The notes beneath the pieces were generated by a model. It was not told where the DNA came from. It did not search any database and saw only the letters and a program-made list of their open reading frames with translations. A program made the position numbers and the translations under genes. A stretch of DNA of 40,146 nt from an uncultured Alphaproteobacteria bacterium. GTDB lineage: Bacteria; Pseudomonadota; Alphaproteobacteria; CAAHEQ01; UBA3637. Shown here one piece after another: positions 11,513 through 26,580 of the stretch. The stretch is taken from positions 1 to 40,146 of the forward strand of contig CALXTZ010000001.1 in NCBI GenBank assembly GCA_944391545.1, read 5' to 3'. Within the stretch, counting starts at the first letter, position 1. Each line of letters begins with the position of its first letter.

Positions 11513-11543
11513 AAAAAAACCGTCCGAGAAGGGCGGCTTTTTT
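11513..11543. terminator. Bidirectional terminator between tRNA-Ala and the NUDIX gene
   Basis: A7, then CCGTCC-GAGAA-GGGCGG (one G:U pair), then C and T6. Confidence 0.6.
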
Positions 11544-11570: not shown

Positions 11571-12130
11571 TTATCTCCGGCTTAACCATTTATCCGTCAT
11601 CCGAACCATCGCAGCAGAGATTTCCCCTTTTCTTGCCATGTCGGATAATTCTGTTGCATTGACCCACTTTAAAGAATTTGATTCATCGCTTATAACAACT
11701 TTCTCTGTGGGAGCCTTTAACAAGAAACGCACATCATAATGTTTATGTTCCGGTTCATTTTTCTTTGCATTCGCCGGAATAGTATGAATATCAATGTCAA
11801 AAATTTCTTTCATCACAAATTGAATGTTTTGAATACCGGATTCTTCTGTTGCTTCTCTTAAAGCAACATTCCAGGTATTATCATCCCCATCAGAGTGTCC
11901 CCCTAACTGCAACCAGCGATTCAACTTCTTATGATGCGTCAGAAGAACTTTTTTTCATCCGGGCTTAAAACCCAAACAGAACCATTCACATGACCCGATA
12001 AATTAGAACGTTCAAAGCAATTTGGATTGTTTTCTATGAAATTGATCATTTCTTGAATAAATCCTTGCTCCGAAGCATAGTCTGTTTTATACGTTTTTAA
12101 AGCGCTCAAAAGTAAACCACGATCTGCCAT
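11571..12130 (-). pseudogene. NUDIX hydrolase interrupted by a frameshift in an A7 run (or a homopolymer sequencing error)
   Basis: The upstream frame ends ...VWVLSPDEKKFF*. The downstream frame reads KKVLLTHHKKLNRWLQLGGHSDGDDNTWNVALREATEESGI (Nudix box). The two frames meet at T7 (plus strand, 11949-11955). An eighth base would give the continuous reading SPDEKKVLLTHHKK. Confidence 0.7.
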
Positions 12131-12337
12131 TTTTAATCCTTTCTTGGATGACAATGTCTGCCCATTCTCACTTATCTCTCCCTTAAGAAATCCAGAAGAA
12201 GCATACTTCAAAAACAAAAAAATTCAATAAGACAATTAGAAGGGCATTAACTTTTTATAAATCAAAAAAATAATAGCCCTTTATAAAAAATCAGAAACCG
12301 AATACTCATTATAAATATTCAGAGCATTATGAAAAAC

Positions 12338-23043: not shown

Positions 23044-23074
23044 AGCCCGAAACATACTTTTCGGGCTTTTTTTT
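23044..23074 (+). terminator. Orphan plus-strand rho-independent terminator
   Basis: AGCCCGAAA-CATAC-TTTCGGGCT (9-bp stem) plus T8. There is no plus-strand CDS upstream. Confidence 0.7.
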
Positions 23075-24073: not shown

Positions 24074-24165
24074 TTTTTAATATTGAATTTTAATTTGAAT
24101 CTGCTCATAATATTTCTAATGCACAAGGAGGTACAGGATGCAGCTTTATTCAAACAACACGTTTA

Positions 24166-24178
24166 CCCCCCCCCCCCC
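24166..24178 (+). repeat. Homopolymeric C13 tract
   Basis: Counted directly: 13 consecutive C. The tract lies inside an 18-codon mini-ORF (24138-24194, SD AAGGAGG) and between -35-like TTTACC and -10-like TATTTT hexamers. Confidence 0.95.
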
Positions 24179-24534
24179 GACCTATTTTAATTGAAATAAC
24201 GCGTCCGTTTAATGCTTTTTATCCCATTTTAATGCGACGCCAACACCTTTTATTTCGCGTTAAGATAAAAAGGATGGAAATGTGTTACCTTTTTTACAGA
24301 GTTCGTTTAAACTTGTGATATCCCTAATTCACGGTTGTTTAGGATTGTTAATTAGGAGAATAAGATGTTACACTTTATTTCATTTTTTTAAAAAAGATCG
24401 CACACTACGGAAAAAAACACAGCCCGAAAGAAAGTACGAAAATACGGCCAAGTCGTTCGGGGACTTTTCCGCCCGCCGCGCCGAAATTCTTCGGGCGCGC
24501 GGCGCGGCGGGTAGCTCCCCAATCCGGCAGAAGC

Positions 24535-26580
24535 ATGATTGAGATGTTGGCTGTTCTGGCCATCATGGGCGTTTTGACTGTGGGCGGAATTGCCGCTTAT
24601 TCCTTCGCCGTTTCTAAACACCGCGCCAATCAAATCTACAACCAAGTCGATTTACGCGCTGTTGCTTCTTTCGGAAATCCTTTCGTCAGACAAATACAAG
24701 TCGGACAAACTTATCCTTTGGCCGGGTTCGATGAAATCGTCGAAAACATCACTTACCAACATCAAAAGACTTCCGGTAACGGGTATGACATTATCGCTTC
24801 TCACGTGCCCGAACGTGTTTGCCGTCGTTTGCAAGATATGACTTTTCCCGTTCCCAAATCCGTTACATTGAATGAGGCCGACCTTTCTTCAACGTGTGGG
24901 AATGACAATACGTTTGTTTTTTCTTATGACGGTTTGTCCGTCGGAAAACCGTCAAGCGGTGTTGATCCGATTGATTGTAATTGTTCCGGCTGTCAAAGTT
25001 GCGAAAGCGGAACCTGTCAAGACAATGACAACTTATGCGGCCCCAAAGAAGTCTGTGTCGCCGGAAGTTGTCAATGTGCACCGGGATACGAAGAATGCGG
25101 CGGCAGTTGTTATGCCACATGTGGAGAAGGTTATATGCGCGATCCCGTCACTTGTGATTGCATCTGTGAACCGCAGGAATGTCCCGAACACGCCTCATGG
25201 GATACGGCAACTTGTTCTTGCGTCTGCGAAGACGGATATGACATGTGCGGCGGTTCGTGTCATCCCGTGTGTAACAGTTCCGGCATGACGGGCGAACGAG
25301 ATCCGAACACCTGTGCCTGCACGTGTTTTGAAGGCACGAATGCTGACACATGTGCTTGCCCCGACGGGTATATTTACATCAATGGTCAGTGCCAACGATT
25401 CGAATGCAAAGGCGGAACAACCGGTTTCACATTCGACTGTTTCATCAACGGCGTCCAATGTGGTCGTCTTTGTTCAAGTGACGGCAGTGGCTGTTTACAG
25501 GGAACGTGCCATCCTGAAACGTGTGAAGGAAACGGCGTGTTCTCTAATGAAAGATACGGCGGATGCCGAGATGGCGAAAAATATTGTGTGCCTATTTTCT
25601 TTGAAAATGGATCCATTAACTATTGGCGTTGCTACAATGAATATGGGGATTGTTGTGATGCCTCTTCCTATGGAGAGTGTCGCCTTGGTTCCTGTTACGA
25701 TAATCCTTGCATAAAGTATGATGGTTCTACTTATGAACCTGTCAACGCTTGGTATTTATATGGATGCAAGTTCAATTCAAATTTAAGTTGCTATCTCAAC
25801 AATGAAGAACGCACACGATGGAATTGTTTTGTTAACGGCGTTTTATGCAACAATCAATGTACTGATCCTTTAAATTGTGCCGGATGTGATTATACAAACT
25901 GTCCAGATGGTGCTATATATGACCCGGAAACCGGTATGTGTACAAAAAATGGGATCTATTGTGACAATACCGGATGCTACTTTGATGCCCAGAAGTCTCA
26001 AAGATGCGGCGAAGCATGCGGTAAAAATGGATTTGGTATCTGCGGAGAAGGATTGTGTTTTGACACCTGTCCAGCTGGTTTCAACTTAGCTTTCAGCTCG
26101 TTACGAGGATACGGCGCTTGTATTAAAAATGATTTAACTTGCTTTCACAGTACTGCCAACGCCCCGGCTATGTGTTATTACCAAAATCAATTATGTGGTA
26201 ATCTATGCGAATTAGACGGAACTAATTGTGAAATTGTCTTCTTACCTCAATGCGCAAGTGGAGGCAAATGCGTTTACGGATACCAAATTACTGCAGATTG
26301 TGAATGTGATACAAATCCAAATGCACAAATTGGAGATTATTGTTGTGCCCCTGGACATACGTTTATTAACGGAGGATGTACTCTCATTGAATGTCCAGAA
26401 GGACAAGTTGCAGATTCAAATGGTATTTGCCGAACAGAATGTGAAAATAATGCAGAAGTCATCTCGACAGGAAACGACACATGCGTTTGCGGCGGTAACA
26501 TTTATAAAGATAACTTCAATCGTACAATCTGCTGTGATGCCGACCATTCATGGGATGAAACATCCGAAACGTGCGTATAA
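24535..26580 (+). CDS. Pilin-like (prepilin-type N-terminus) giant cysteine-rich protein; the true 5' end is probably upstream (open frame back to 24364)
   Basis: 681 aa from the first in-frame ATG. The N-terminus MIEMLAVLAIMGVLTVGGIAAY is preceded in frame by ...SGRS, giving G|RSMIE with Glu at +5. A pilin-size head of about 145 aa has one Cys pair (C96, C121). The next 535 or so aa hold about 80 Cys. A terminator follows directly. Confidence 0.8.
   Translation: MIEMLAVLAIMGVLTVGGIAAYSFAVSKHRANQIYNQVDLRAVASFGNPFVRQIQVGQTYPLAGFDEIVENITYQHQKTSGNGYDIIASHVPERVCRRLQDMTFPVPKSVTLNEADLSSTCGNDNTFVFSYDGLSVGKPSSGVDPIDCNCSGCQSCESGTCQDNDNLCGPKEVCVAGSCQCAPGYEECGGSCYATCGEGYMRDPVTCDCICEPQECPEHASWDTATCSCVCEDGYDMCGGSCHPVCNSSGMTGERDPNTCACTCFEGTNADTCACPDGYIYINGQCQRFECKGGTTGFTFDCFINGVQCGRLCSSDGSGCLQGTCHPETCEGNGVFSNERYGGCRDGEKYCVPIFFENGSINYWRCYNEYGDCCDASSYGECRLGSCYDNPCIKYDGSTYEPVNAWYLYGCKFNSNLSCYLNNEERTRWNCFVNGVLCNNQCTDPLNCAGCDYTNCPDGAIYDPETGMCTKNGIYCDNTGCYFDAQKSQRCGEACGKNGFGICGEGLCFDTCPAGFNLAFSSLRGYGACIKNDLTCFHSTANAPAMCYYQNQLCGNLCELDGTNCEIVFLPQCASGGKCVYGYQITADCECDTNPNAQIGDYCCAPGHTFINGGCTLIECPEGQVADSNGICRTECENNAEVISTGNDTCVCGGNIYKDNFNRTICCDADHSWDETSETCV

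Follow-up and report, generated by a model that had tools for sequence, protein, structure and literature searches.

The pilin-like gene examined here starts at ATG 24365, preceded by the Shine-Dalgarno sequence AGGAGA, and in this strain it is interrupted by the shortfall of a single T in a homopolymer run only a few codons further on. The window, i.e. the whole stretch of 40,146 nt that was analysed, comes from contig C1 of a 1.30-Mb, 139-contig, 94%-complete genome and carries an alphaproteobacterial tmRNA. According to the domain annotation of the window the gene is flanked by sspB-RHH and uppP(BacA)-comEC. For annotation this means a 738-codon precursor from 24365 interrupted by a 1-nt T-run shortfall, and not a 681-aa protein from 24535. 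The version with seven T is probably a real OFF allele which arose by an ordinary homopolymer slip and is potentially reversible; we infer that it is present in the DNA and does not come from the assembly. There is nothing unusual about the T-run site as such; what deserves attention is the surrounding family, which is switched by poly-C/G tracts.

A preliminary description of the window had already placed a Shine-Dalgarno sequence and an ATG one nucleotide out of frame with the pilin ORF, and its reading of this region holds to the base. AGGAGA is followed by 5 nt and then by the ATG (24365-24367), from which the codons ATG TTA CAC TTT ATT TCA TTT TTT TAA give MLHFISFF and a stop (24389-24391) inside a tract made of T7 at 24383-24389 and A6 at 24390-24395. 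The frame map agrees with its claim that the pilin frame holds no ATG, GTG or TTG before ATG 24535; this frame (coordinate mod 3 = 1) has a TAA stop at 24361-24363 and is then open to 26580. The same description proposed that one added base would join both frames, and the fused product exists as a called 739-aa protein, P0002, in the same species. The features are collected in Table 1.

Table 1. Positions of the features discussed, numbered from the first letter of the window
Feature	Position	Strand	Basis
Sigma-70-like promoter candidate, TTGAAT-17 nt-CATAAT	24083..24111	+	Sole match upstream of the gene; consensus scan only
Upstream start module: Shine-Dalgarno AAGGAGG 24125-24131, ATG 24138, 18-codon mini-ORF MQLYSNNTFTPPPPTYFN with stop, C13 24166-24178	24125..24194	+	
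Shine-Dalgarno AGGAGA of the real start	24354..24359	+	Invariant in the window, L034, L048-L053 and L035
Real start ATG and 7 codons, then TAA (MLHFISFF and stop)	24365..24391	+	Gene calls in relatives; P0002 begins MLHFISFFLKK
T7A6 tract, site of the frame break	24383..24395	+	One T below the T8A6 of same-allele assemblies
Remainder of the leader (55 residues in all), read in the pilin frame (LKKIAHYGKK...RRVAPQSG)	24388..24528	+	Open, with no start codon
Palindromic module of the leader, GC-rich (core 24468-24511; encodes SPAAPKFFGRAARRV)	24459..24520	+	Folding and genome repeats
Mature prepilin-like protein and stop: hydrophobic helix RSMIEMLAVLAIMGVLTVGGIAAY, then Cys-rich body of ~650 aa	24529..26580	+	Profiles
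A7 run (T7 on the + strand) splitting the NUDIX hydrolase gene	11949..11955	-	A8 in same-species contigs

P0002, 94% identical in the protein search, begins MLHFISFFLKKIAHYGKK...PQSG/RSMIEML (its N-terminus is also given as MLHFISFFLKKIAHYGKKHSPKESTKIRPSRSGTFPPAAPKFF...PQSG/RSMIEML; here and below the slash marks the predicted cleavage site), which is exactly the predicted fusion. Its contig reads TCA-T8-A6-GATC and the window TCA-T7-A6-GATC, and the base missing from the window is accordingly a T (T8A6 vs T7A6). Ten same-species loci were collected via look-up of the identical RHH protein. The allele of the window was found in two independent same-species assemblies, L051 (which is the L035 contig, coverage 17.6) and L053 (coverage 9), both of them with T8A6. 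The L035 and L053 alleles sit at the window's own locus, after sspB-RHH, and the gene order in the L035 contig equals that of the window: ABC transporter, SspB, RHH, the gene, BacA, ComEC. Four same-species loci carry a sister allele with TTTCTTTTAAATAA (MSHFISFLLNK), which is in frame, and the metagenome contig L034 also has the 14-nt, in-frame, non-homopolymer TTTCTTTTAAATAA. All seven related loci are thus in frame, two with T8A6 and five with TTTCTTTTAAATAA (14 nt), and the window is the only one with 13 nt. The tract sets the frame, T7 being out of frame and T8 in frame, and its length varies between near-identical strains (window T7 vs L051/L053 T8).

AGGAGAAT..ATG and the leader recur in frame at seven related or same-species loci and for this reason the Shine-Dalgarno sequence and the ATG are not a chance match. 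In six same-species contigs gene calls start genes of 701 to 759 aa at the upstream ATG. Syntenic genes of two sister species possess in-frame leaders with a Shine-Dalgarno sequence and an ATG, MRLHNDRKLYSF...NG/RSM and MVRFTFDKALSLKKKASK...SG/RSM, and in the closest sister species the contig breaks in the poly-C and does not show the 5' end of the ortholog. From these comparisons we can conclude that the gene truly begins at ATG 24365, served by AGGAGA. Since the pilin frame offers no start codon earlier than ATG 24535, it could be argued that a 681-aa functional protein begins there, the upstream Shine-Dalgarno sequence and ATG belonging to a small upstream ORF. This is highly improbable: the Met would be residue +3 of the GRSMIEML motif that is conserved in ~50 paralogues, no Shine-Dalgarno sequence precedes the codon and a hairpin of -48.6 kcal/mol stands immediately before it, the product would have no G(-1), so that prepilin peptidase could not process it, and all same-species gene calls which reach the position (6/10 loci) start at the upstream ATG.

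The precursor read from ATG 24365 would consist of a 55-residue leader, a cleavage motif with a helix and a Cys-rich body. Its motif and helix, G/RSMIEMLAVLAIMGVL..., would be type-IV-pilin-like. The G(-1) codon GGC lies at 24526-24528 and E(+5) at 24541-24543 (GRSMIEML), and QSG/RSMIEMLAVLAIMGVLTVGGIAAY has the features of a class III signal peptide, namely G(-1), E(+5) and then a hydrophobic helix of ~20 residues. The NCBIfam profile TIGR02532 scores 18.8 bits, above its curated cut-off of 16.3, and Pfam N_methyl scores 15, below its cut-off of 21.2. The leader differs from a classic one in its length of 55 residues (typically 5-30) and in having Arg, not a hydrophobic residue, at +1. Cleavage at G55 is a prediction from sequence for a leader of 55 residues with Arg at +1. 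A prepilin peptidase (PF01478, 57.6 bits) is encoded on contig C46 and T2SSE ATPases (PF00437) on C25, C18 and C19. The body is intact, with an end like that of P0004, and Pfam and PDB searches with the Cys-rich body gave no match.

The palindromic module in the leader folds at -48.6 kcal/mol (z = -2.4) and is the sole genome-repeated part of the upstream region. It has 14 copies in the genome, eight of them ending 21 nt before a G(-1) codon of the family. Such modules in leader coding regions may act as an RNA hairpin or a DNA hairpin, or may be tolerated insertions in a leader which is discarded.

The proposed course of events is a simple one. The T run would be recent, TTTCTTTT having become T8 by a C-to-T change and then T7. 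The T8 run, which spans codons 7-9, would have lost one T in the window strain, and ribosomes starting from the ATG would stop after 8 codons; since the pilin frame itself supplies no start, the gene would be OFF in this strain. The T run would then be an accidental slippery spot and not a maintained switch, and a slip between T8 and T7 would in principle be reversible. With ~50 paralogues in the genome, such a slip would be easily borne; most of the paralogues are probably held silent by dedicated tracts, poly-C within leader ORFs or poly-G within promoter spacers.

It is possible, if somewhat unlikely, that the gene is intact in the organism, with T8A6, and that the assembler dropped one T here, as well as one A in the NUDIX gene. 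The preliminary description had itself cautioned that homopolymers might be systematically under-called, since the NUDIX gene in the window is also broken at a 7-nt run and would be repaired by one added base. The second break is there, in a gene at 11571-12217 on the minus strand: the run is A8 in 4/4 aligned same-species contigs, one base added to the gene restores a NUDIX-box protein, and the intact 203-aa product P0054 is present in 20 contigs. The window's NUDIX copy is a pseudogene, unless its break is an error. The systematic pattern was not borne out by the genome-wide audit. Among 1016 A/T runs of at least 7 nt in the genome, 290 lie in frame inside long ORFs, and a 1-nt change would join two open frames at 62 sites, of which only the NUDIX site is a convincing intragenic break; no other was found among the ~290 in-gene A/T runs. 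An apparent excess of insertion-repairable sites in long genes turned out to consist of gene boundaries (such as ftsA/ftsZ and glgB/glgX) and was discarded.

Run lengths were compared with the same-species contig L058 over 21.5 kb at 97-98.7% identity, with 10 indels in total. Of 16 coding A/T runs of at least 7 nt, 13 were identical, two had a base substitution and one, the T7 site, a length change; among nine non-coding A/T runs two changed in length, one being longer and one shorter in the window. With base-substituted runs excluded, length differences amount to 2/8 in non-coding vs 1/14 in coding runs. The T run just before the tmRNA gene (23067-23074) is T8 in the window and T7 in 10/10 same-species loci, and at 11537 the window has A6 where 4/4 same-species loci have A7. 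Five run-length changes are unique to the window, four of which are contractions. The enrichment in non-coding sequence and the occurrence of both directions argue against systematic under-calling, and since coding runs would be hit by errors just as well, most of these differences stem from real mutations in the strain. This procedure, in which coding and non-coding homopolymer lengths are held against independent same-species assemblies, is a way to weigh real slips against assembly errors.

An error at the T run is nevertheless suggested by several observations. Both broken genes need one additional base in runs that are 8 nt long in the same-species contigs examined for the site, and a third family copy, on contig C27, likewise needs one in an A8 run. 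Nothing is broken in the leader and body beyond the tract, the window stands alone at five run lengths, four of them contractions, T7 is known from one consensus sequence and was not found in any other assembly, and the end of contig C44 in the unique gene pgi may mean thin coverage. Against these stand the audit, with NUDIX as the single other intragenic break, length differences which go both ways and are mostly non-coding, as is expected of real mutation filtered by selection, and the 1-3% divergence between the window strain and the compared contigs, which leaves ample time for a real slip. Homopolymer indel errors of metagenome-assembled genomes are resembled by the 1-nt contraction confined to a homopolymer and by the second case in the same contig; the contrast is that broken genes are not in excess across this genome and that run lengths deviate both ways. 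Inactive copies of the family are frequent: several paralogues have in-frame stops, and the copy on C18 has a nonsense codon two codons before G(-1). The search for T7 elsewhere gave no instance among the other assemblies, and exact look-ups of products that a T7 allele alone should yield found neither the 681-aa protein nor three 86-aa overlapping-ORF variants. A real T7 allele is still the reading that we regard as probable.

A mutator background through the loss of mutL was considered as well and rejected. The gene was not found in the genome of the window, yet it is present in 30/30 other genomes of the taxonomic family. Contig C44 (C44:1-960) ends within pgi, which adjoins mutL in sister species, and the missing mutL is therefore probably an assembly gap and not evidence of gene loss.

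The seven T could also be functional, through programmed recoding in which tRNA-Phe slips by -1 on U UUU UUU while UAA occupies the A site, or through transcriptional slippage on T7A6. The run is slippery, a zero-frame stop follows directly after it, and a -1 shift would give exactly the protein seen elsewhere. Known -1 programmed frameshift sites are A AAA AAG of dnaX and the retroviral U UUU UUA, and the resemblance is that the zero-frame U run lets the P-site tRNA-Phe re-pair in the -1 frame; the site described here differs from them in having neither a downstream stimulator nor conservation, and in that its relatives are in frame. The out-of-frame layout is unique to the window. A stimulator is expected 5-9 nt downstream, but the 33 nt after the tract are unstructured (-10.9 kcal/mol, z = -0.47) and the GC hairpin begins ~80 nt downstream of the tract, too far away to serve as one. 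Seven T are also short for efficient polymerase slippage. The suggestion of programmed -1 frameshifting in the preliminary description thus fails, with 7/7 relatives in frame, five of them with the non-slippery TTTCTTTTAAATAA, and with no fold within 33 nt downstream. Recoding has a very low probability here; as a design, programmed frameshifting is discarded, though leaky slippage may occur at trace level.

The T run is not kept across alleles, being interrupted (TTTCTTTT) in 5/7 related loci, while the poly-C/G tracts are maintained. Because of this lack of conservation it is not a dedicated phase-variation tract. The dedicated switches of the family are 76 poly-C/G tracts. The 1.3 Mb of the genome contain 76 C/G homopolymers of 9-19 nt, with a peak at 12-13 nt (n=49); eight others measure 7 nt, and the lengths 8 and 10 nt do not occur. 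Around 20 poly-C tracts lie 27-32 nt after a Shine-Dalgarno sequence and an ATG, in leader ORFs; 11 poly-C leader copies could be scored, of which three are in frame and eight out of frame. A further 37 tracts are poly-G and lie between TTGAC(N) and a TAnnnT hexamer, with spacers of 11-21 nt. Poly-G/C runs of at least 11 nt are present in 17/31 genomes of the taxonomic family.

The protein family has 74 matches in the genome of the window, with ~50 recognisable N-termini, and it occurs across the whole taxonomic family and is practically missing elsewhere. The ~50 paralogues share G[RK][ST]xxE. Their leaders are 6 to ~170 residues long and made from GC-rich modules, and many are short and classic (MKKYLAKQQG/RSM). 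On contig C27 (C27:13549-13590, +) there is a copy of the family whose Shine-Dalgarno sequence and ATG (MFKHTKKN and a stop) miss the frame by 1 nt at an A8 run; with an additional A the leader would be a classic one, MFKHTKKKLSKQHG/RTLLEML. A small-genome alphaproteobacterial family devotes a substantial share of its genome to ~50 pilin-headed Cys-rich surface proteins, and their individual switching by 76 poly-C/G tracts points to a surface-variation repertoire. No published description of this protein family or of its switching system was found in the literature.

Campylobacter jejuni and Helicobacter pylori have contingency genes with poly-G/C tracts of this kind, such as the homopolymeric-tract gene Cj1295 (PMC3068675). 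The genome studied here resembles theirs in having long G/C homopolymers in an AT-rich small genome, with a separate length mode and variation from strain to strain, and differs from them in that the 76 tracts are concentrated on one protein family and occur in two fixed architectures. The 37 poly-G tracts of the paralogues, situated in promoter spacers, can be likened to the promoter-spacer homopolymer switches of Neisseria porA and opc (poly-G/C) and of Mycoplasma hyorhinis vlp (poly-A). Unlike these, the window gene's own tract is of the leader-ORF type. In Neisseria opa (CTCTT repeats) and pilC (poly-G) the repeats are situated in the coding region of the signal peptide. The similarities are that the length of a repeat in a disposable leader sets the frame of a surface protein, and that the gene belongs to a large set of scattered paralogues, of which the majority are out of frame at a given moment. 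The differences are that the T8 run is not conserved among alleles and the tracts maintained in the family are C/G of 9-19 nt, and that the proteins are prepilin-like with Cys-rich bodies and have leaders of 6 to ~170 residues with GC-rich modules.

The tract of the leader-ORF type that belongs to the window gene is a C13, 187 nt upstream of ATG 24365, and stops in every frame separate it and ATG 24138 from the pilin ORF. Further upstream, TTGAAT-17 nt-CATAAT is a promoter candidate; promoter-like matches upstream of the pilin-like gene are not more numerous than in shuffled sequence. We considered the region from the poly-C to the Shine-Dalgarno sequence as coding and abandoned this, its differences from L034 being mostly amino-acid-changing; it is probably untranslated. 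The head and the poly-C are common to the 10 same-species loci, with C11, C12, C13 or C14 in otherwise matching alleles. What follows the poly-C at the same site (window 24179 onward compared with L054, L055, L057 and L056) falls into three unrelated classes. One class is a cassette with its own Shine-Dalgarno sequence and ATG, as in the window, and another is read from the head ATG through the poly-C. In 3/10 same-species loci the tract is followed by a long-leader module which would be in frame with the head ATG at C12. The poly-C varies in length and appears, as far as these alignments tell, also to mark a recombination junction.

It is speculative, and on the whole unlikely, that the site beside sspB-RHH is an expression site whose constant head (Shine-Dalgarno sequence, ATG 24138 and poly-C) serves as a cassette-exchange junction. 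Cassettes with their own start would then escape the control of the poly-C, and a slip in an A/T run would be their only quick OFF route (T8 to T7 here, A8 on C27). If this were true, two-speed switching would exist on top of recombinational variation. The gene itself (24529-26580) is of mosaic make-up, with a leader and head that agree with the P0002 allele and a C-terminal half closer to the P0004 allele, which may point to recombination among alleles or paralogues.
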